The notes: a model not told the origin generated them from the letters alone. DNA of 41,779 nucleotides from a virus (IMGVR_UViG_2721755647_000004), one strand, 5' to 3'. Counted from the stretch's first letter, positions 2,792 to 41,779 are shown. Numbers and translations: made by a program.

Positions 2792-5700
2792 TCAACTGAT
2801 ACTGATACCAGCTGTAGATTTCTTCATCACAACAACAAGAAGGTCGCTGATACTGGTCGTTGGCGTCCAGTTATTAGCACCATATGAAGAAACATTGAAA
2901 GTCAGGGTGACATGGCCGTGTCCGGCAGGCATATCAATGACTGATGAAAATACCCTGCTGACATCCGTCGCGGGTTGCTGAAAGATTTCCTGTCCGTTCT
3001 TCAGCACCTGCAGCTTACAGGTTGAATACCAGTATGACTGTTGGTTGTTGCTGTTGAAGTTTTCATGCTTACCACCGCGAAACAGAACGGGGGGGATTAC
3101 TATCTGACGGTCAAAAGCCTGGTCATCGTACACAGTGACCGTTATTGTACCGCTGGCATAACTGCCATTTCTCGGAAAGGCTTTTCCCACCGTTTTGACA
3201 ATATCACCTTCAATCTGGTTGGCTGACAGTTTTCCCAGAATCCGACAGTTCTGATTAATCGTGACGTTGTTGAGCGTCCCGGAGTTCGCGTTCACGTTAC
3301 CGCTGATATCCGCATTTTTCGCAGAAAGTCGACCATCAGGTGTCAGTGAAAACGTTGGGGGATTGCCACCGCTGGTAATGGTGGGAGCCGTCAGATATTT
3401 CAGGAACACTTCGTTCATGAATATCTGATCGCCCTGCCCAACAAACATCGGCTTTGTGTTGCCATTCGCAGGATTAATCATCGCAATCCTGTCCGCCGCC
3501 AGCAGCACCTGACTCTGCATACCGTCAGGAGTATTCTCAATACCGGCACCAATACCCGCGATATAAAGGCGTCCGTCCTGCATCTGCTGCAGCTTCACAG
3601 CCCACATGCTGTTCAGGTTATTATTTGTATCAACCTGAACCTTCTGTATCTGCTGGATCGCTGCACTCTGGTCTTCCAGTTTCTTATTGACGGTCTGCGT
3701 GATTTCATTGCTGACACCCGTAATGGACGTCCTGATTTCAGCCAGGTCAGGCGCAAGCTGACCGTTATCAATCTGCGTCCACAACTCCTGAGCCAGATGG
3801 GTTTTCCCTATCTCTCCTTTGAAAAAATTCAGATAGCCGGATGCATCATCACTCGGCTGGCCAACAGCCTCCACAAATGCCGATTTGCCAACGGTGTTCA
3901 CACTGCGGATGTAAAAATAATAATCATGGCCCGGTTTGATATTGATACTGGCGGCTATCCAGTACAGCGCCGTGCCAAGATAGCGTGCTGTGGTTTCAAC
4001 CTGCCTGATATCCGCAATCCGCTTTTCCGAGAACCAGAACTCAAACTGTACCGTCGGATCATAAACCGCAAGATGCGGCGTGGCGGTTATCTGAAAATAC
4101 CCCGGTGTCAGCTCAATCTGCGACGGCGCTGCCGGTGCGGCAATCCGGAACGATACCGATGCCGGATCGCCCTGCTGCCCCCACGCATTTACTGCCCGGA
4201 CTGTCAGCCTGTAGTTCCCCAGCGCCAGTTGTGTGAAGCGGTATGTGGTTTCCGCCGTCCGGGCTGTGCTGACCAGCCGCTCACTGCCGTCATCCGCTGC
4301 CACGGTCAGGCGAAGCATGAAACTCACGCCCTTCACCACCTTCGGCGTGTCCCAGCGGGCCAGTACCTGATACTCCCCGCTGTCTGCGGTGACTTCGGCA
4401 GTCAGGTGCTGCACTGCTGGCGGCGTGACACCATTCACCGTGCCGCTCTGGTCGCCGTCAAAGTGCGCCCCGTTATCCACGATGGCTTCTTTTTCCGGTA
4501 CATGCTGCACGGCGGTGATGGCATACGTGCCGTCGTCGTTCTCACGGATACTCACGCAGCGGAACAGGCGCTGGCGCAGCGTCGGCAGCTTCAGCCCCCA
4601 CACGCTGTATCCGGCAACGCCGTCAGGAACACGGCTAACTTTCACCTTCACGCCGTCGGTGACGGACTGGACCTCCACGCTGACCGGATTGCCATTTCCG
4701 TCAACCAGGCTTATCAGCGTGGTGCCGGAGGATGGCAGCATGATTTCACGGTCGAGCGTCAGTGTCCGCGCCTGGCTGTTCACCGCCAGCACGCGCCCGC
4801 CGATGCTGATACCCGCATAGTCATCATCGCAGATTTCAATGACATCGCCCGGTACATGGCGAAGCCCTTCTGCGCCCACGCTGAAGTCCACGGTCTGCGT
4901 TTCCAGCAGCTCCGTTTTAATCAGCCACAGCCCGGCGCGGTGTGCCTGCCCCCGACTGGTACAGCCAAAGGCATCCATCTTCGTGACGTTACGACCGTAA
5001 CGGGCAATGGCCTGCGTGTCCTCCACAAGCTCTGTCGCCGTCTCCCAGCCGTTATCCGGGTCAATCCAGTTCACCTCAACGGCATTATGGCGGTCTTTCA
5101 GGGCGCTGAAGCTGTAGCGGAACGGCGCACCATCATCCGGCATCACCACATTACTGCAGTTATAGGTCCACACCTTATCCGATGGTCGGTCCTGCACGAA
5201 TGTCAGCGTCTGTCCGTTCCATACCGGCATACAGCGCATCGCCGAGCAGAAATCACTGAGCACATCCCACGCCTTACGCTGTGTGGTCAGCCAGGCATTA
5301 CAGGTGATGCGCGGCTCCGTGCCACCAAAGCCATCCGGCACCGACTGGTCGCAATTCTGGCCGATGACATACAGCGCCCATTTGTCCACATCCGCCGCAC
5401 CGAGACGTTTCCCCATGCCGTAGCGCGGATGGGTCAGCATATCCCACAGACACCAGGCCATGTTGTTGCTGTATGCTGGCTTAAACGTTCCGTCCCAGAT
5501 ACCGCTGTATTGCCGCGTCTGCGGGTTATAGTTCGACGGCACCTGCAGAATGCGCCCGCGAAGATGATAATTACGGCTCACCTGCTGACTGCCGAACTGT
5601 TCCGAGTCCACCTGCACGCCGACCAGTGCCGTGTTCGGGTAGCACTGTTTCACATCGATGATTTCGGTGTATGACGACCAGAGCGTTTTGTTCTGCAGCT

Positions 5701-24248: not shown

Positions 24249-26202
<1,954 letters not shown>

Positions 26203-26591
26203 CCTTTGATATCGCCCTGGTTTATTTTGCGAAGAAGCGTCGATGTTCTGAAATTACCAGCACCCACGTTGTAAACGAATGAGTAAAGAGCGCCGCGCGT
26301 TGTTTCCGGTATATCGACTGTGATGTACGGGTTAATTTGTCTGGCGACAGTGGCAAGGTCTTTATTCAGGAGTGCTTTGCATTCTGCTTTGGTATACGTT
26401 TTACCGAGCATGATGTCTTTTCCTGTATGCCCGTGACATACAGTCCATACACCAACAATATCTTTGTATGGTATGTAGCTGACACCTTCCAGACCATCGT
26501 TACCACTTGGGCCAGTGATTAACACTGATGCTATAGCAATTGCTCCGCCACCAATAGCAGCAGCAACGGCTTTTCGTAATGATGGAGGCAT
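26203..26591 (-). pseudogene. R: N-terminal fragment of SAR endolysin R (phage 21 type), truncated by the IS insertion
   Basis: [59 protein letters not shown]... has a signal-anchor-release N-terminus and lysozyme fold. The frame joins the 24134..24248 fragment across one copy of the target repeat to give a 165-aa protein. Confidence 0.85.
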
Positions 26592-26806
26592 TATTCACCT
26601 CTCGCAGCCTTGCGCTTATCTTCTTTAATCTTGAAATAAAGGTTTGTCAGGTACGTCAGCAGGCCAAATACCAGGCTACCCAGCACACCTATTGCCGCCC
26701 ACTGTGAGGGCGTGACTTTATCGAGCAACTGTAAAAACCAGTACCCGGCACTACCTGCTGAGGTACCATAGGCGACACCCGTTGTTAACTTATCCATGGA
26801 TTTCAT
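26591..26806 (-). CDS. S: class II holin / pinholin S (phage 21 type) with dual-start motif
   Basis: 71 aa: [71 protein letters not shown]; Met1 and Met4 starts; two TM segments; stop overlaps the R start. Confidence 0.9.
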
Positions 26807-26937
26807 AACCCCACCTCGCAGACAAAGCGGGTGTAAATTAAGGGGATACTACGTATCGCAATAAAGGCAGAAACGTAACAGATTCGGAGTCAGTGAATAA
26901 CTCAGGTATTGGGTTATCAGCTAATATCGAGACTCAA

Positions 26938-26968
26938 AAAATGGAAAAACCCGCTCGACGGCGGGTTT
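26938..26968 (-). terminator. intrinsic terminator-like hairpin upstream of S (candidate tR')
   Basis: Stem aaacccgc/gcgggttt with loop tcgacg at 26947..26968. On the minus strand it is followed by a T-run (tttttccatttttt). Confidence 0.45.
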
Positions 26969-27394
26969 AAGCTGTGTGACGAAGTAACCACTCTTAACAG
27001 CATAACCAATTTTTTACGTACGTAAACTACTAAATGATATTTGTGAGAATGCCACCGAGTGTTCAAAACACCACCACAAATGCATAAGAAAACTTCAACA
27101 AATAACCAGTTAATAATTTCCGATGTTATTTTTAGTTTGTTTAAATTAAGCTAAAGAATTATAGAGCACTTATAAATAAGTGCCATTAATATAAATTAGC
27201 TAATAGATTTATTTTTGTTCAGACAAGAGCCATGAATAGGATTAGATAGAAAAGGTTCCGATAAAAATAGAGATCTACTTCACAAATTAAATGAGAAACT
27301 AAAACTTACATCTTGAAATAATCACATTGATTAGATGAATATTTATCGCGCAGTGACATCATTTTTTAATAATAGTTCAAAAAAAGGGCGTACA

Positions 27395-28477
27395 ATGAAA
27401 AAATTAACAGTGGCAATTTCTGCTGTAGCTGCATCAGTACTGATGGCGATGTCTGCTCAGGCAGCTGAAATTTATAATAAAGACAGTAACAAGCTGGATC
27501 TATACGGGAAAGTTAATGCCAAGCACTACTTCTCCTCTAATGATGCAGATGATGGTGATACTACTTATGCCCGTCTTGGCTTCAAAGGTGAAACCCAAAT
27601 CAACGATCAACTGACTGGTTTCGGTCAGTGGGAATATGAATTCAAAGGCAACCGTGCTGAATCTCAAGGTTCTTCCAAAGACAAAACCCGTCTTGCATTT
27701 GCAGGCCTGAAATTTGGTGATTACGGCTCAATCGATTACGGCCGTAACTACGGTGTAGCATACGACATCGGTGCGTGGACTGACGTTCTGCCAGAATTCG
27801 GTGGTGATACCTGGACCCAAACAGATGTGTTCATGACTGGTCGCACTACTGGTGTTGCAACTTATCGTAACAACGACTTCTTTGGTCTGGTCGATGGCCT
27901 GAACTTTGCTGCTCAGTATCAGGGTAAAAATGACCGCACTGACGTAACTGAAGCCAATGGTGATGGTTTCGGTTTCTCCACTACTTATGAGTATGAAGGA
28001 TTCGGCGTGGGTGCAACCTATGCTAAATCAGATCGCACTGACGGTCAGGTCGCCTATGGTAAGAGCAAATTCAATGCCTCCGGCAAAAATGCGGAAGTAT
28101 GGGCTGCAGGCCTGAAATATGATGCGAACAATATCTATCTGGCTACCACATATTCTGAAACTCAGAATATGACCGTTTTTGGTAATAACCATATTGCAAA
28201 CAAAGCACAAAACTTTGAAGCAGTAGCACAATATCAGTTTGACTTCGGTCTGCGTCCATCTGTTGCTTACCTTCAGTCAAAAGGTAAAGACCTTGGTGTT
28301 CATGGTGACCGAGACTTAGTCAAGTATGTCGATGTCGGTGCTACTTACTACTTTAATAAAAACATGTCCACTTTTGTTGATTACAAAATCAACTTAATTG
28401 ACGATAGTAAGTTTACCAAAACAGCTGGTATTGATACCGACGACATCGTCGCTGTAGGTCTGGTTTATCAGTTCTAA
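27395..28477 (+). CDS. nmpC: outer-membrane general porin, phage-borne NmpC/Lc (OmpC/OmpF family)
   Basis: [23 protein letters not shown] signal peptide, [24 protein letters not shown] and C-terminal ...VAVGLVYQF porin signatures; AAAGGG Shine-Dalgarno upstream; between Q and S as in DLP12 and PA-2. Confidence 0.9.
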
Positions 28478-30083: not shown

Positions 30084-30539
30084 TTACGCCTCCTGCTTGT
30101 CGCGGAGCAGCTGGAACTCGCAGCTCTGCGGAATAGTCAGGTGGCAGCCAATATTCACCGCCCAGGCTTCAACCTTACACAGGAAGACATACATCTCTCC
30201 GGTATCAAGATCGGAGGTATGGCGTAACGACTGGATAGTGGTGATATCACCGGTTACGACATCAACCAGGTCTTTGGTTTCATAACCGAGATATGTGTGT
30301 TTGAGAGCATCTTTTACCCAAGCTGGAGTGGCGAACGTTTTACCCCTGCTGATGAGGTATTCACTGATTTCGCTGTACCACATGTGGCTGAGTGCATTCT
30401 GGGAAAGACTGCGTCTCTCGCGCCACGGTTTAAGCACCATGCGAAAGCATTTGCCGTCTTCCAGATAAGTCTGGATCTGCTGACCGACAGCGGTGAAGTT
30501 ACCGCGATGTAATTTGATGCCATCTTGTGGGAGGTTCAC
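30084..30539 (-). CDS. NinB/YbcN-like protein of the nin region
   Basis: 151 aa in the ninB position downstream of P; recalled as DLP12 YbcN-like, not verified. Confidence 0.6.
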
Positions 30540-30806
30540 GCTTCACCTCCGCAGAGATCAAACGCTGGATGCAAGACATCGCAGGTGCATTTCTGCATCT
30601 GTGACAAGGTGATGAGTTCAGATTGTGGTCGCATTTAAGTCCCCTTAAATGCGCAGAAGTCACCGGAGTTGTTCAGGCTCCGATGAGAGGATTATGGCGG
30701 ATTGATTACGATAAATCAAAACTATCTTGAAGCCAAAACAGTGATCTTCGCTTTAAAAACCTTGTATACTTTCACCTAATCACAGCCAGAACTATGGATC
30801 TAACCA

Positions 30807-31184
30807 ATGACCAACAAAGAAAACAAAGATAAATATATTAACAAGTTCAAGAAAGAGCTTTCAAAATATATACAACCAACTGCTGGAGTGGACATTCAAT
30901 TATTTAACTCTAAGGATGGTGGTGGTGTAATTAAAGCCACTTTGAATAGAAGTGGAAAAAGAAAATCATCTATTGCAGGTAATTTTACTAAATTAGGTGA
31001 GGCAATTACCTCGAGTGGGCAGAGGGTTTTTGGTGGTGATCTATCAAATGTAAATTTTTACGGAACAAATACGATTTTTGATGGAGATACAATATTTTTA
31101 ATTAAATCACCTGATTCAGAGGAGTGGTCATCACAAAAAGCTTCCAAAGACGTAGAGGGAATCGTATTTGGAGGGAAAAAATGA
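30807..31184 (+). CDS. hypothetical soluble protein, first gene of an AT-rich antisense two-gene module
   Basis: 125-aa Lys/Gly-rich ORF with no recognised domain; opposite strand to the flanking P and ninB genes; stop overlaps the next ATG (ATGA). Confidence 0.5.
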   Translation: MTNKENKDKYINKFKKELSKYIQPTAGVDIQLFNSKDGGGVIKATLNRSGKRKSSIAGNFTKLGEAITSSGQRVFGGDLSNVNFYGTNTIFDGDTIFLIKSPDSEEWSSQKASKDVEGIVFGGKK

Positions 31185-31609
31185 TTAACATTACTACTAA
31201 GGATGGCACTCAAGTCAGTGGTGAAGTAAGAGATCTAGTAATTCTTCTTGAAACTGATGGAAAAACGGTGTCTGATTATTTGCAGCCAATCCCTCCCAAA
31301 AAAGATACACACTGGAGCATGATTTTCATTCCGGTAGCAATTTATATACTACTTAATCTTGTATACATTATTGCTCACCCATTATTTCCTGAAAAATATC
31401 TAAAAACATCAACATCTATATTTCTATTCATTTCCTTCATATTAAGTGCAATAGTAGCATATTTTGTTTTCCATAAGCATAAATCTGCCACTCTATCCAT
31501 ATGCAGCTTAGTGTTCTTAGTGTTAATTGTAGGTGCTAACGTAGGGTTTATCAGTTACAGCGACCTAACACAAAAAGCGACGCAAAAATTAGATAGTTTG
31601 TCTAAATAA
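31181..31609 (+). CDS. hypothetical membrane protein (about three predicted TM helices), second gene of the module
   Basis: ATG at 31181 with GGAGGG Shine-Dalgarno six nt upstream. Short soluble N-terminus, then WSMIFIPVAIYILLNLVYIIA, SIFLFISFILSAIVAYFVF and LSICSLVFLVLIVGANVGFI. Confidence 0.55.
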   Translation: MINITTKDGTQVSGEVRDLVILLETDGKTVSDYLQPIPPKKDTHWSMIFIPVAIYILLNLVYIIAHPLFPEKYLKTSTSIFLFISFILSAIVAYFVFHKHKSATLSICSLVFLVLIVGANVGFISYSDLTQKATQKLDSLSK

Positions 31610-31687
31610 TTATGTTGCCATGCGAAGTATGCATGGCTGCATGTCTGCCTTCCATTTAAAATGGGCTAAGACCTATAACCCTAAATA

Positions 31688-32401
31688 TTATTCTTTATTA
31701 TCTTCTTTACCACTTCGCACCATCCCGTTCGACTTGTTGCGGTTGTACTTCGCCTGAAGCAGCTGGATTGGCGTCGGGCCATGCTCGGCAGCCGGTGCTG
31801 CAATCGCCCGGCGCACAGGCGGTACTGGTTTGCCCTCGGTGACGCGCCTCTCCCACATGTCCAGCAGATCGCCGGCTTCACGCGCCAGCTCACCATGCGT
31901 TAACTGGCGCTCTGTGCTGCGGTGGCGCAGTTCGACGCAGATGTGGTACATGACAGGCTGTGACCACGGGAAATGCTCGCTGGAAGTGAATTCGAAGGAA
32001 CGATTACGCCAATCCCAGTATTCGGTTATGACTTGGTCAACAGTGATACCTAACGCCCCGCCACTCTGCTTACACCACGCTACGAACTGGCCGGGCGACG
32101 GCAGGAATGGTCGCTCCTGTCGGCGGGCCACGCGCATTCCGGCGTTAACCTGCTCCATAGTGGTAATTCCATTTTCACGGAAAGCCATAACCCACTGACG
32201 GCGGATTTCGTTCAGCTCGTTCTGGTCGCGGTTCGCGAGGCTTGCCGGAAATGTCGCAAGCAGCTGGCTGAACACACCGTTGATGATCTGCGCCACCTGC
32301 TGCACCTGCGGCTTTTCGTCGTATTGTTCCGGCATGTTGTTGGCGATTCGACGCATCTGCTCACGGTCAAAGTTAATCATCTGCGCGGCAATATTTTTCA
32401 T
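31688..32401 (-). CDS. P: replication protein P (helicase loader)
   Basis: N-terminal ~110 aa MKNIAAQMINFDREQMRRIANNMPEQYDEKPQVQQVAQIINGVFSQLLATFPASLANRDQNE... match lambda P; the C-terminal half is divergent. Confidence 0.85.
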   Translation of the reverse strand: MKNIAAQMINFDREQMRRIANNMPEQYDEKPQVQQVAQIINGVFSQLLATFPASLANRDQNELNEIRRQWVMAFRENGITTMEQVNAGMRVARRQERPFLPSPGQFVAWCKQSGGALGITVDQVITEYWDWRNRSFEFTSSEHFPWSQPVMYHICVELRHRSTERQLTHGELAREAGDLLDMWERRVTEGKPVPPVRRAIAAPAAEHGPTPIQLLQAKYNRNKSNGMVRSGKEDNKE

Positions 32402-33417
32402 AGCTCCACCCCGTAAATCCAGTCAGTGTTTGTCAGGTCGAGTTTTGGTTTGCTGGCAGTCACACCAGCCTGTTGCTTGTTGCGGTTAATTTCGAGCTGA
32501 GTCCACTTGTCGCGGAGTTTTGCTGGACTCAGCACGTTACCGGACCAGAAGTTGTCCTGGCAGGCCCAGCGGAACAGAACGCACATGTCGCGATGGTTAC
32601 GCCCGTCACGCTCACGCATCAGGCGGATGTCGTTGGCCCACCCTGCAAAATTCGGTTTTCTGGCTGATGGCGCGATGGTCTTCACCATGTCAAACATCCA
32701 CTCTGCGGCGGTCAGGTCTTCTGCTGTCCCCCACTTGCTGCCGCTCTGAATTGCAGCATCCGGTTTCACCACAGGAAGATCGTTTTCTGGCTGGTCAGAG
32801 GATTCGCCAGAATTCTCGGACGAAAAAGGTTTTATATTGTCTTTTGTTAGTTTGTCTTTTGTGTTTACCTGATTCGGGTAAACGTCTTTACCTGATTTGG
32901 GTAAACTTTTCTTACCTGATTCAGGTAAATTTACCTCTTTCAGGTAAACTTTATTTTTCTTACCTGATTCGGGTAATGTTGACCATTCACTGACCACATT
33001 ATTAATGCCGATATTCCGCCCGCTCTGAATAAAAATCCCACGCTTTACCAGAACACTTTTTGCAGCAGAACACTTGTGCGGCAATATCCCGGTCAACTCG
33101 GAAAGTTGCTCGTTGCTCACCCAATCCAGTTTTTTATTAAAGCCATATGTTTTGCGCATGACAGCCAGGAAGACCAGAAGCTGGTGCTGTGTTAATCCGG
33201 CCAGCATCACAGCTTCCAGCAACTCATTTGCAATGCGCGTATAACCATCATCGAGATCTGCCACGCGCGGCTCCTTTTGTGCCACATCCGGCACTGGAAA
33301 ATTGAATATCTCAGCAGTGTTTGCCATAATTCCTCCCGCAATGAGTGTGTTACGATTTGCACCTGAAAGTCGGTTCTGTTCGCGCAGACCGGCTTTCGCC
33401 ATTTCTGAACCTGTCAT
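32398..33417 (-). CDS. O: replication initiator protein O
   Basis: 339 aa immediately upstream of P with the start overlapping the preceding gene; the replication origin iterons lie inside it (peptide repeats LPESGKK). Confidence 0.8.
   Translation of the reverse strand: MTGSEMAKAGLREQNRLSGANRNTLIAGGIMANTAEIFNFPVPDVAQKEPRVADLDDGYTRIANELLEAVMLAGLTQHQLLVFLAVMRKTYGFNKKLDWVSNEQLSELTGILPHKCSAAKSVLVKRGIFIQSGRNIGINNVVSEWSTLPESGKKNKVYLKEVNLPESGKKSLPKSGKDVYPNQVNTKDKLTKDNIKPFSSENSGESSDQPENDLPVVKPDAAIQSGSKWGTAEDLTAAEWMFDMVKTIAPSARKPNFAGWANDIRLMRERDGRNHRDMCVLFRWACQDNFWSGNVLSPAKLRDKWTQLEINRNKQQAGVTASKPKLDLTNTDWIYGVEL
32866..32976. repeat. ori iterons: five 18-bp repeats TTACCTGATTCGGGTAAA (variants) inside O
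   Basis: Copies at 32866, 32888, 32912, 32931 and 32960; each has inverted TTACC / GGTAA ends; flanked by an AT-rich stretch. Confidence 0.85.
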
Positions 33418-34321: not shown

Positions 34322-35014
34322 ATGAAAAAAGAAACTCTTGCTGATCGCTTAAACCTAGCGATGGAACAATCTGGAATGTCTCAAGGCGCTCTTGCAAAGG
34401 CGTCTGGCGTAGCTCAACCCACAATCTGGAGACTGACAAGCGGCAACGCGCGCGGCTCAACAAAAATTGTTGAAATAGCTAATGCATTGGGTGTTCGAAC
34501 AGAATGGCTCTCATCAGGCATAGGCCCGATGAGAAATGACGGTCAACAATCAGGGAAGCCTGCTGTCAGCTATTCCAAATACTTTAAAATTGACGTTCTT
34601 GATATAGAAGTGAGTGCCGGGCCGGGAGTCATCAACCGTGAGTTTGTAGAAGTTCTACGCTCGGTTGAGTACTCGTTTGACGATGCTCGTCACATGTTCG
34701 ATGGTAGGAAGGCAGAAAATATCCGCATCATTAACGTACGCGGTGACAGCATGTCAGGAACGATTGAACCTGGTGATCTTCTATTCGTTGATATCACGGT
34801 TAAATCTTTCGACGGTGATGGTATCTATGCGTTTCTGTACGACGACACAGCCCATGTAAAGCGCCTGCAAATGATGAAGGATAAGCTGCTGGTTATCTCT
34901 GATAACAAAAGCTACTCACCGTGGGACCCGATCGAGAAAGATGAGATGAACCGGGTATTTATCTTCGGGAAAGTTATTGGGAGCATGCCGCAGACGTATA
35001 GGAAGCATGGATAG
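34322..35014 (+). CDS. cI: CI-like prophage repressor (HTH_XRE plus S24 LexA-like peptidase domain)
   Basis: MKKETLADRLNLAMEQSGMSQGALAKASGVAQPTIWRL HTH; C-terminal RGDSMSGTIEPGDLLFVD ... KRL catalytic Ser/Lys motifs. An alternative TTG start lies at 34286. Confidence 0.9.
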   Translation: MKKETLADRLNLAMEQSGMSQGALAKASGVAQPTIWRLTSGNARGSTKIVEIANALGVRTEWLSSGIGPMRNDGQQSGKPAVSYSKYFKIDVLDIEVSAGPGVINREFVEVLRSVEYSFDDARHMFDGRKAENIRIINVRGDSMSGTIEPGDLLFVDITVKSFDGDGIYAFLYDDTAHVKRLQMMKDKLLVISDNKSYSPWDPIEKDEMNRVFIFGKVIGSMPQTYRKHG

Positions 35015-35094: not shown

Positions 35095-36156
35095 ATGGAT
35101 ACTTTAAAATATGAGAAATTCTCTGATTTTGATCACAATGACCCATTTTTTGACTCTTTAAAAAAAGATTATAAAGAGTTTCCTCTTTGGTTAGAAAAAA
35201 AAGCCAGAGAAGGAGAATCAGCTTATGTGCTCTATGATGACAAGCATAAAATCGAAGGTTTTATGTATCTAAAAGAAAATGATGATGCAAATGACATTAA
35301 TCCAGCGCTCCCACCAGGACGTCATCTAAAGATAGGAACATTCAAATTTGAATCTAAAGGCACCCTTCGCGGACAACGATTTCTAAAAAAAGCGTTTGAC
35401 CATGCATTTTCATCAAAATCTGATGATATTTATGTTACTGTTTTCGACAAACACGTCCATCTAATAAAACTTTTCCAAACGTACGGATTTTACATTCATG
35501 GTGAAAAAGAAACACATAACGGGAAAGAGTTTGTATATGCGAGGTCTTTGCATGAGCCTTATGGTGATATTTTATTAGATTACCCTCGAATAATGACATC
35601 AAGGGCCAACAAATATTTACTGGCGATTTATCCCGAATATCACACTAGACTATTCCCTGATTCAAAACTTGTAAATGAATCACCAGATATTGTCAAAGAT
35701 ATATCCCATGCTAACAGCATTCATAAAATTTACATATGTGGAATGCGTTCTGTGATGGGAATGAAAAGAGGAGATATCATTGTCATCTATAGAACCGGAG
35801 ACAAAAAAGGGCCAGCTCGCTATCGTTCTGTAGCCAGTACATTATGTGTAGTTGAGAGCGTAAAAAATATTTCTGAATTTTTAAGCGAAGATAGTTTTGT
35901 AGACTATTGTATTCGTTTTAGCGTATTTTCTGAAGATGAACTCAGAAAAATCTATAAAGAACGTCGATACCCTTTCATTATAAGATTCACATACAATCTG
36001 TCTTTGCCAAAGAGACCCAATCGTGCTATTTTAATAGATCATGTGGGGCTAAATGGTTCGCGTGCATTCCGATGGAGTCACTTTAAACTCACAAATGAGC
36101 AGTTCTTAAAGATCATCGAGTTAGGCAAGATAAATGAAAGTTTTATTATCCATTAA
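35095..36156 (+). CDS. hypothetical protein, first gene of the rex-position cassette; N-terminal GNAT-like fold and C-terminal PUA/ASCH-like region suspected
   Basis: ATG at 35095 with GGAG six nt upstream; about 353 aa; AT-rich; 80 nt downstream of the cI stop on the same strand. Domain calls come from motif inspection only. Confidence 0.55.
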   Translation: MDTLKYEKFSDFDHNDPFFDSLKKDYKEFPLWLEKKAREGESAYVLYDDKHKIEGFMYLKENDDANDINPALPPGRHLKIGTFKFESKGTLRGQRFLKKAFDHAFSSKSDDIYVTVFDKHVHLIKLFQTYGFYIHGEKETHNGKEFVYARSLHEPYGDILLDYPRIMTSRANKYLLAIYPEYHTRLFPDSKLVNESPDIVKDISHANSIHKIYICGMRSVMGMKRGDIIVIYRTGDKKGPARYRSVASTLCVVESVKNISEFLSEDSFVDYCIRFSVFSEDELRKIYKERRYPFIIRFTYNLSLPKRPNRAILIDHVGLNGSRAFRWSHFKLTNEQFLKIIELGKINESFIIH

Positions 36157-36511
36157 GCCTGAGTTTGCAGAAAAAATATTGAACGGAACAAAGCGGTTCG
36201 AGTTTCGTAAAGGTATATTCAAAAATCCGCAAATTAGCACCGTTGTTATTTATGCCACGATGCCATTAGGTAAAGTTGTTGGTCAATTCCGTATTGAATC
36301 AATACTAAGTGACGAACCGGAATCTCTTTGGAAAAAGACGGAAAAGCACGCAGGTATTTCTAAGCAATTTTATGACTCATATTATTCAGGTAGAGAAAAG
36401 GCCTACGCAATAAAAATTGGTGAAGTGGAAAGATATAAAGAACCAATTCCTATCTCTGCTCTAGGTAGTAATATTAAGCCACCACAATCATATCTTTACC
36501 TACCTGCGTAA
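36134..36511 (+). CDS. ASCH-domain protein, second gene of the rex-position cassette
   Basis: 125 aa; N-terminal NGTKRFEFRKG fits the ASCH GxKxxExR motif; overlaps the preceding gene by 23 nt. Confidence 0.6.
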   Translation: MKVLLSIKPEFAEKILNGTKRFEFRKGIFKNPQISTVVIYATMPLGKVVGQFRIESILSDEPESLWKKTEKHAGISKQFYDSYYSGREKAYAIKIGEVERYKEPIPISALGSNIKPPQSYLYLPA

Positions 36512-40410: not shown

Positions 40411-40647
40411 ATGTCTCGACTAATCACTTTACAGGACTGGGCTAAAGAAGAATTTGGGGACTTAGCACCAAGTGAGCGAGTTCTGAAAAAATACGCGCAA
40501 GGGAAAATGATGGCCCCACCCGCTATAAAAGTTGGTCGCTACTGGATGATTGACCGAAATTCCCGTTTTGTAGGAACGCTTGCAGAACCGCAACTCCCAA
40601 TAAACGCAAACCCAAAACTCCAACGGATAATCGCTGATGGCTGCTAG
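40411..40647 (+). CDS. xis: excisionase-like protein
   Basis: 78 aa directly upstream of and overlapping int; AGGAGG Shine-Dalgarno at 40390..40395. Confidence 0.65.
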   Translation: MSRLITLQDWAKEEFGDLAPSERVLKKYAQGKMMAPPAIKVGRYWMIDRNSRFVGTLAEPQLPINANPKLQRIIADGC

Positions 40648-41779
40648 ACCCCGATCTCACAAAATCTCTATACCCAATTTATATTGCAAATTAGATAAGC
40701 GAACCGGAAAGGTATATTGGCAATACAAACATCCACTATCCGGTCGTTTTCATAGCTTAGGAACTGATGAGAATGAAGCAAAACAAGTTGCTACTGAAGC
40801 AAATACCATTATTGCTGAACAACGTACCCGACAAATATTAAGCGTCAATGAGCGTCTGGAAAGAATGAAAGGCAGGCGCTCAGACATTACGGTGACAGAA
40901 TGGCTTGATAAATATATTTCTATCCAGGAGGACAGGCTGCAACATAATGAACTAAGACCCAACTCCTATCGGCAAAAAGGCAAACCCATTCGTCTTTTCC
41001 GTGAGCATTGTGGAATACAACACCTCAAGGATATTACCGCACTTGATATTGCCGAAATAATTGATGCTGTAAAGGCTGAAGGTCATAACAGGATGGCGCA
41101 AGTCGTGAGAATGGTGTTAATCGACGTCTTCAAAGAAGCACAACACGCAGGACATGTTCCGCCAGGATTTAACCCAGCGCAGGCAACAAAACAACCGCGA
41201 AATCGAGTAAACCGCCAAAGATTATCACTGCCCGAATGGCAGGCAATATTTGACAGCGTAAGCAGACGGCAGCCCTATTTAAAATGCGGGATGCTACTTG
41301 CTCTTGTCACTGGACAACGTTTAGGCGATATCTGCAATTTGAAATTCTCTGATATCTGGGACGACATGTTGCACATTACTCAGAAAAAAACCGGTTCAAA
41401 ACTTGCTATTCCGCTTAACCTGAAATGCGATGCTCTGAATATTACCCTTCGTGAAGTTATATCTCAGTGCAGGGATGCTGTTGTTAGTAAATATCTGGTC
41501 CATTACCGTCACACAACCTCTCAAGCAAACAGAGGAGACCAGGTTTCTGCGAATACTCTGACAACGGCTTTTAAAAAGGCCAGGGAAAAATGTGGCATAA
41601 AATGGGAGCAAGGAACTGCGCCCACATTTCATGAGCAGCGATCTCTGTCAGAACGGTTATATCGGGAACAGGGTCTGGATACGCAAAAGTTGTTAGGCCA
41701 TAAATCCAGAAAAATGACCGACCGATACAATGATGATCGTGGTAAAGACTGGATTATCGTAGATATCAAAACAGCATAG
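40637..41779 (+). CDS. int: tyrosine-type phage integrase
   Basis: 380 aa with C-terminal catalytic-domain motifs (R...HEQRS ... LLGHKS...Y); the stop codon is the last three bases of the window. Confidence 0.9.
   Translation: MAARPRSHKISIPNLYCKLDKRTGKVYWQYKHPLSGRFHSLGTDENEAKQVATEANTIIAEQRTRQILSVNERLERMKGRRSDITVTEWLDKYISIQEDRLQHNELRPNSYRQKGKPIRLFREHCGIQHLKDITALDIAEIIDAVKAEGHNRMAQVVRMVLIDVFKEAQHAGHVPPGFNPAQATKQPRNRVNRQRLSLPEWQAIFDSVSRRQPYLKCGMLLALVTGQRLGDICNLKFSDIWDDMLHITQKKTGSKLAIPLNLKCDALNITLREVISQCRDAVVSKYLVHYRHTTSQANRGDQVSANTLTTAFKKAREKCGIKWEQGTAPTFHEQRSLSERLYREQGLDTQKLLGHKSRKMTDRYNDDRGKDWIIVDIKTA

Follow-up and report, generated by a model that had tools for sequence, protein, structure and literature searches.

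Analysis of a 41,779-nucleotide viral sequence (IMGVR_UViG_2721755647_000004; "the window" hereafter means this whole stretch) showed that two short genes lying antisense to the early genes of a lambdoid prophage, here named A and B, belong to a widespread two-gene module, as yet unnamed, whose members are strictly paired. A is soluble, B carries three transmembrane (TM) helices, and together they make a good candidate for a new phage-defence or toxin–antitoxin (TA)-type module. The features of the pair are as follows, with positions counted from the first nucleotide of the window.

30807–31184, plus strand: gene A, from the open reading frame (ORF) list; 125 aa; RefSeq hypothetical protein WP_000182282.1 in Escherichia coli 536.
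31170–31175, plus strand: Shine–Dalgarno sequence GGAGGG for B, within the 3' end of A and 5 nt ahead of the B ATG.
31181–31184, plus strand: ATGA stop/start overlap of A and B, read from the sequence.
31181–31609, plus strand: gene B, from the ORF list; 142 aa; RefSeq hypothetical protein WP_000608370.1 in E. coli 536.

The pair had been described in an earlier reading made without database searches (the sequence-only reading), and its account of the two genes holds. Both ORFs were found where it placed them, on the plus strand, opposite to the minus-strand pR operon and in the slot of ren, and the ATGA overlap and the GGAGGG motif can be read directly in the sequence. Its description of the first protein as soluble and Lys/Gly-rich agrees with 17 Lys and 15 Gly among 125 residues, an isoelectric point of 9.5 and no hydrophobic segment. 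For the second protein it had claimed a short N-terminus followed by three hydrophobic helices, a layout that hydropathy and AlphaFold both uphold. A polar N-terminus of about 45 residues, of which residues 1–36 form a conserved domain, precedes hydrophobic segments at about 47–65, 79–97 and 106–124; the loop between TM2 and TM3 is basic (HKHK here, RFK among relatives), and a short polar tail ends the protein. The AlphaFold model of B (predicted local distance difference test, pLDDT, 68) consists of a small beta-hairpin and a helix followed by three long helices, and a structure search with it returned generic helical bundles only. The N-terminal domain is probably cytoplasmic. Translation of B from a GTG at 31124 is mechanically possible and would give a longer form of 161 aa; the ATG at 31181 is supported as the start because homologues begin MI(N/I)ITTKDG.

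A and B are real genes under strong purifying selection. Homologues with 65–92% identity are present in Escherichia, Shigella, Enterobacter and Klebsiella, and the pairwise ratios of nonsynonymous to synonymous substitution rates (dN/dS) are 0.08–0.11 for A and 0.08–0.13 for B, with synonymous sites near saturation in both. Because of these low ratios and the conservation across phyla, the features of the two genes are more than chance.

The extent of the A family was determined by an exhaustive HMMER search with an enterobacterial A profile, in which representatives stand for clusters at 50% identity. At E ≤ 1e-3 the search yielded 111 such representatives, almost all full-length (120–135 aa), and an hhalign comparison of enterobacterial A with a distant A subgroup gave a probability of 99.6% (E 1e-24). 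Members of the family share the motifs YINNFRR..L..YLKPGiG, GGA(I/V).EF, Q.aFGGNL.G..F.GTN and RI.LIK(D/G)....W...A..D. One hit of the A profile, P0130, was a false positive, a cadherin-repeat protein. A genome scan with a narrower A-family alignment found 23 loci, 22 of which were analysed, with the following distribution.

Neptuniibacter, Nitrosomonas, Thiohalobacter, Salinisphaerales, Alphaproteobacteria, Deltaproteobacteria and a metagenome-assembled genome (MAG) of candidate Acidiferrales.
Nitrospira, Thermodesulfobacteriota, Myxococcales, Synechococcus, Saganbacteria, Gemmatimonadota, Mariniflexile, Flavobacterium and Bacteroides.

Gamma- and Betaproteobacteria are among the classes represented in the family. 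An ORF with three TM segments directly follows A in 20 of the 22 genome loci, the exceptions being a contig end and a degraded copy. These downstream ORFs are mostly 117–143 aa long, with two disrupted or truncated (91 and 154 aa), and the same 4-nt overlap recurs in 12 genome loci. The same order, A and then a 3-TM partner, was found in all metagenome, plasmid and prophage loci examined. Over the whole analysis it holds in about 30 loci, most of them with the 4-nt ATGA overlap. The distant partners are homologous to B of the window (hmmsearch 31.7 bits; hhalign probability 97.6%, E 4e-12): they share an N-terminal domain with the pattern MK.G..EG(T/S)pEE(V/I).d(L/F)..n.G(L/F)...dY.e.P, a W..IP motif at the start of TM1, an RFK-type basic loop between TM2 and TM3, and a P.E tail. 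Since a homologous 3-TM partner follows A, usually overlapping it, across phyla, the pair, its gene order and its translational coupling are ancient and obligate. The phyletic pattern is patchy, and the pair is horizontally mobile.

In one protein (P0104, 447 aa) an N-terminal A-family domain is joined to a central HNH nuclease, while the C-terminal half contains no known domain. It is encoded on 1.7-kb contigs out of several sequencing runs (L062/L063, 246–1589). Such a fusion would fit a sensor or regulatory role for A, in which its domain can be linked to toxic effectors of different kinds.

The sequence-only reading had also stated that neither protein matches anything nameable. For curated libraries this is correct; what it missed is that each protein belongs to a large conserved, if unnamed, family. 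A has no match in Pfam, NCBIfam, PADLOC or PDB sequences, and B has only sub-threshold TM noise in Pfam and no credible match in NCBIfam or PADLOC; both family profiles gave noise only against PDB sequences. The best PHROG matches, 18061 for A and 16940 for B, are families of unknown function. Pfam searches with 73 A-family members returned no family in common, and neither the window pair nor the distant pairs matched a described toxin or antitoxin family in Pfam, NCBIfam or PADLOC. Four distant pairs had zero credible matches at E ≤ 1 in PADLOC-DB v2.0.0. Neither the literature searched nor the DefensePredictor supplements mention the accessions, PHROG identifiers or peptide strings of A and B. 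SNIPE (PMC13190303), which came up as a candidate, is a single-protein system unrelated to the pair.

The sequence-only reading had called the layout of the second protein typical of membrane-disrupting abortive-infection or superinfection-exclusion effectors, an interpretation that is plausible. The contexts of relatives partly support a role in defence or conflict, an association drawn from example loci: restriction–modification (R-M) operons of types I and III, the P2 hotspot, a conjugation-gene region and a TA island. In one lineage of P2-like prophages the pair occupies the gpA–gpQ region, the defence hotspot defined by Rousset et al. 2022 (PMC9122126), where it lies beside GAPS4 or DUF4145 genes. 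This P2-type variant was found in no complete E. coli genome. In uncultured Bacteroides sp. UMGS1534 (L038, 3966–9919) the pair lies exactly between the type III mod and res genes, all on one strand, and in a proteobacterial MAG the gene order is hsdM-hsdS-A-B (type I R-M). Elsewhere the pair is found between a caspase-like peptidase (Peptidase_C14) and a DUF4238 gene, in a region with conjugation genes (TrwC relaxase, TraG-type coupling protein) on its flanks. One locus is a TA-rich island, further loci adjoin an integrase or a transposase, and a marine phage-like contig carries the pair as well. PADLOC matches pooled over 109 neighbour proteins include SoFic, mad2, PDC-S05 and PDC-S22.

The closest non-enterobacterial relatives of the window pair are located directly after rep on small ColE2-type mobilizable plasmids. 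There (L070, 3–1745; L072/L073) A-B follows rep with an 11-nt overlap and has no promoter region of its own, and the rep of one plasmid contig with mobilisation genes is 82% identical to the rep of 5-kb plasmids of Klebsiella, Serratia and Salmonella. Comparison of the three nearest genes on each side in 20 non-enterobacterial loci detected no homology between loci. Because the flanking genes are unrelated, A-B is an autonomous two-gene unit; a third conserved gene was considered and rejected, the only recurrent neighbour being rep in the plasmid subgroup.

In the window, the composition, position and ends of the region identify it as a moron: it has deviant guanine-plus-cytosine (GC) content, forms a discrete insert at the same slot as in other prophages and has conserved ends. 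The relevant features and the neighbouring genes are these.

About 30700–31650, no strand assigned: low-GC island holding the whole insert; GC 0.30–0.39 versus 0.50–0.63 in the flanks (composition profile).
30765–30770, plus strand: -10-like hexamer TATACT, a putative promoter element 36 nt upstream of the A start.
31612–31642, no strand assigned: conserved GC-rich hairpin directly after the B stop; core GCCATGC/GCATGGC at 31617–31623/31631–31637.
30084–30539, minus strand: ybcN, with a NinB match slightly under the Pfam threshold.
30536–30634, minus strand: ORF of 32 aa between the cassette and ybcN.
31688–32401, minus strand: P, Pfam PF06992 (E 7e-49).
32398–33417, minus strand: O, early-right operon.

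The window is a lambdoid prophage of the phage 82/DLP12 type that adjoins sitBCD in E. coli strain 536. Its early-right operon lies wholly on the minus strand and runs from a cro-like helix–turn–helix gene through a YdaT-domain protein to O and P, and past ybcN to ninE, ybcO, rusA, ylcG and Q. The plus-strand genes A and B stand between P and the 32-aa ORF/ybcN, antisense to this operon, in the interval that corresponds to that of ren on the lambda map. Of 5,426 complete E. coli genomes, 46 have the cassette, in each case with at least 99% identity and the same flanks; a megablast search of deposited phage genomes found no copy. The integrase is truncated, with IS100 (istA) directly downstream (40637–41779), and a tail-fibre gene is truncated as well (4327–4690); because of these truncations the prophage is probably defective, and the A-B cassette is nonetheless intact.

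Whether the arrangement is conserved in other nin regions had been raised with the sequence-only reading, and prophages of Klebsiella, Enterobacter and other Enterobacteriaceae indeed hold the pair in the same slot, antisense and just upstream of the gene that opens the nin region (NinB or DUF1367). These prophages differ in replication module (O/P, DnaB-type helicase or IstB/DnaC-type) and in other cargo. In one of them (L003, GCA_030132385.1, 4748–11959, Enterobacteriaceae), the P-to-NinB slot holds A-B together with DndB-like and HNH genes and a pair of colicin-like (377 aa) and colicin-immunity-like (174 aa) genes, a mixture of cargo which suggests that the slot is a multi-cargo hotspot.

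The insert has a GC content of 0.33 versus 0.51 for the window. Similarity to diverged copies (L003–L008) extends from near 30740 to just past the hairpin near 31642; upstream it starts about 65 nt before the ATG of A, and the flanks beyond are unrelated in the alignment. This conserved upstream part contains a GGA(T/A) ribosome-site remnant and the TATACT hexamer, which aligns with a TATAGT preceded by TGA (TGATATAGT, extended -10-like) in the Klebsiella and Enterobacter copies. The -10-like element had originally been placed at about 30765–30776: the hexamer is present and conserved in diverged copies, its position is 30765–30770, and the promoter call is weak. The 7-bp stem-loop that had been noted at 31617–31637 is likewise present and conserved in diverged copies, can be extended to 31612–31642, and marks the right end of the cassette. 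In Klebsiella-type copies its stem reaches 15 bp (z-score -6.7) and is followed by UUUAUUUU on the minus strand. Because of this minus-strand version, the hairpin may act on early-operon transcripts; it may also, or instead, stabilise the cassette mRNA. An Rfam scan of 30400–31900 found no RNA family.

Several minor elements surround the cassette. An imperfect 13-nt direct repeat (30746–30758/31649–31661; CTTCGCTTTAAAA/CTTCCATTTAAAA) brackets it near the similarity boundaries and, having been considered as a junction remnant, was treated as a probable chance match. Upstream of the 32-aa ORF and ybcN are a minus-strand sigma-70-like promoter (TTGATT-17-CATAAT, 30719–30691) and a perfect 10-bp inverted repeat (30630–30639/30644–30653). 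This stretch, 30630–30719, matches an annotated putative promoter and "possible regulator-binding site" of phage 82 (X92588), so the nin region may have a promoter of its own, divergent from the cassette. Just past the P stop, in a tR2-like position, lies a weak terminator-like hairpin (31663–31681, minus strand; GGGTTATAGGTCTTAGCCC then ATTTTAAATG), whose folding energy is no better than that of shuffled sequence.

Taken together, we favour, tentatively and at slightly less than an even chance, the view that A-B is a self-contained conflict module of the TA or abortive-infection type, in which B would be the membrane effector and A its cytosolic partner. In type II TA loci the antitoxin gene usually comes first and the toxin gene second, with a start/stop overlap, and the adjacent, overlapping genes here and in most loci, the first soluble and the second membrane-bound, follow this antitoxin–toxin layout. 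The proposed mechanism starts from an accessory cassette inserted into the P-to-ninB/ybcN slot, with its transcription directed against the early lytic genes. The cassette's own weak promoter would drive expression in a lysogen, where pR is repressed. A would be made just before B from the same mRNA and through translational coupling, would bind the cytoplasmic N-terminal domain of the small inner-membrane protein B, and would hold or regulate it as an antitoxin or a sensor. Once A is titrated, degraded, or triggered by a phage or by loss of the element, B would then act on the membrane as the effector. After prophage induction, convergent transcription from pR would be expected to silence the cassette.

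A more far-reaching formulation, somewhat less likely than not, is that the pair forms an unrecognised, phylum-spanning abortive-infection system in which A might represent a new sensor or regulator fold wired either to a 3-TM effector or to an HNH nuclease, which would be carried by lambdoid and P2-like prophage hotspots, conjugative elements, small plasmids and R-M operons, and in which the P-ninB slot may be a site for defence cargo comparable to P2 gpA–gpQ.

Several results weigh against the conflict-module proposal. No homology links A or B to toxicity, membrane damage or phage resistance, and the PADLOC query suggested by the sequence-only reading, run on PADLOC-DB v2.0.0 (2023), matched no model, with zero matches for the window pair at E ≤ 10. 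A contains no recognisable DNA-binding or enzymatic domain, and its structural model is of low confidence (pLDDT 58). The N-in topology of B is only weakly favoured by the positive-inside count (66 versus 52). A consensus promoter scan gave no promoter at TATACT, because the -35 region is poor, and the hairpin, with no plus-strand U-tract after it, is not a canonical terminator on that strand. Neither the 50,697 deposited phage genomes nor the 72,556 PLSDB plasmids searched with tblastn contained a copy of the cassette, many chromosomal copies have housekeeping neighbours and not defence islands, and the host prophage looks defective.

Different explanations of the same data were also weighed. 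SieA-like and Imm-like proteins are proposed to act by a block at the membrane, and B, with A as an accessory, might bring about superinfection exclusion in this manner, stopping DNA entry or an early membrane step of the incoming phage without cell death. We regard this as unlikely. In its favour, B is a small protein of the inner membrane, encoded in a prophage moron that runs antisense to lytic genes, and relatives share their prophage hotspots with exclusion genes such as old and tin (PMC9122126). Against it, the pair is also common outside prophages, on small plasmids and in bacteria of many phyla. A strictly required cytosolic partner, like the fusion of A to HNH, suits a regulated effector better than a passive block, and searches of Pfam and PADLOC revealed no homology to any known Sie, Imm or Cor protein.

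The order of an antitoxin-like gene before a membrane protein gene with a 4-nt overlap, the position directly after rep on small mobilizable plasmids, and the solitary chromosomal pairs scattered among housekeeping genes would all be expected of a pure addiction pair, which stabilises plasmids, prophages and islands through post-segregational killing and has no anti-phage role. Its embedding in R-M operons and phage defence hotspots, and the lack of a recognisable DNA-binding domain for autoregulation in A, make this explanation rather improbable. It overlaps the conflict-module proposal because many TA modules also defend.

A non-conflict function, in which A and B would form an accessory membrane complex for stress tolerance, for ion or small-molecule handling, or for envelope modification (lysogenic conversion), has a low probability in our estimate. 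Most neighbours of chromosomal copies are housekeeping genes, as this explanation would have it, and the same prophage has other conversion morons, bor and an OmpC-like porin. Against this stand the patchy, horizontally transferred distribution, in which neither neighbours nor pathway partners are conserved, the recurrence of R-M and defence genes among the example loci, and the lack of any transporter or envelope family with more than noise-level TM similarity.

Finally, a phage-cycle role tied to the slot, be it ren-like (protection from Rex) or in the control of replication or lysis timing, is largely excluded and very improbable despite the position between P and ninB/ybcN, where lambda has ren, and three TM helices in B like those of class I holins, because the pair is oriented opposite to O, P, ybcN, ninE, rusA and Q, neither A nor B matches the Ren, nin or holin families in Pfam, and the pair is widely found outside any phage; the prophage lysis genes (essD, rrrD and rzpD, 25636–26806) are located elsewhere. 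By these profile searches the pair is not a known ren/nin gene pair, a possibility that had been raised with the sequence-only reading.

If A-B is a defence or TA module, it would constitute a new pair of protein families without Pfam, NCBIfam or PADLOC annotation that ranges from E. coli uropathogens to cyanobacteria and Bacteroidota. With 267 residues in total, it would offer a compact model for the cytosolic control of a small membrane effector, and it would flag the lambdoid ren slot as a place to seek more such cargo. Should the role be another one, the strict pairing and translational coupling found in so many phyla still mark the two proteins as a conserved membrane complex worth naming.

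Two other regions of the prophage carry accessory genes. An N-acetyltransferase (353 aa) and an overlapping ASCH-domain protein (125 aa) are encoded at 35095–36511 on the plus strand, directly downstream of, and on the same strand as, a cI-like repressor (34322–35014). They are a second uncharacterised pair, probably expressed in the lysogen; in lambda, rexAB sits directly downstream of cI, in the matching slot. Accessory or antisense cargo in the late region (24501–28477) comprises a TonB-family protein, bor and an OmpC/NmpC-like porin between Q and the lysis genes.

Comparison with known systems places A-B near several described arrangements. B differs from class I holins in that it matches no holin Pfam family and its gene lies outside the lysis cassette. 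With the classical morons (lambda bor and lom; those of HK97/HK022) the cassette shares its nature as a discrete insert with deviant GC, opposite orientation, a promoter-like element and a terminal hairpin, whereas its promoter and terminator are non-canonical and the pair is joined to the rep transcription unit on small plasmids. PrrC is an abortive-infection gene nested in an R-M locus, and similarly mod and res of a type III system enclose one A-B copy, and a second comes right after hsdM-hsdS; this placement, however, holds for only 2 of about 20 loci, and no sequence or domain relation to PrrC exists.

The TA systems CptA/CptB (YgfX/SdhE, type IV) and GhoT/GhoS (type V) likewise have a small soluble gene just upstream of a small membrane gene, their copies are scattered over chromosomes and mobile elements, and order and overlap follow the antitoxin–toxin convention. 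A-B differs from them in having no Pfam or NCBIfam homology and in the architecture of B, which combines a conserved, predicted cytoplasmic N-terminal domain with three TM helices. In lambda, RexA/RexB are a prophage-encoded soluble partner and a small multi-pass inner-membrane protein. A-B shows no sequence similarity to them and has no RexA or RexB match in Pfam or PADLOC, A is much shorter than RexA (125 versus about 280 aa), RexB has four TM helices and B three, and the pair occupies the ren slot, not the position downstream of cI, and has spread far beyond phages; nevertheless, both are accessory genes for a soluble and a small membrane protein, dispensable for lytic growth, and a sensor-plus-membrane-effector logic is plausible for both.

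Defence systems that combine a HAD-hydrolase or a TIR protein with a TM protein have been described from phage hotspots (Rousset et al. 2022, PMC9122126). A is neither a hydrolase nor a TIR protein and contains no other known domain, and none of five A-B pairs matches PADLOC. The resemblance to these hotspot systems (PMC9122126) lies in their organisation: both are short cassettes in prophage hotspots whose membrane protein is thought to be the effector, and a subfamily of A-B occupies the very same P2 gpA–gpQ hotspot.

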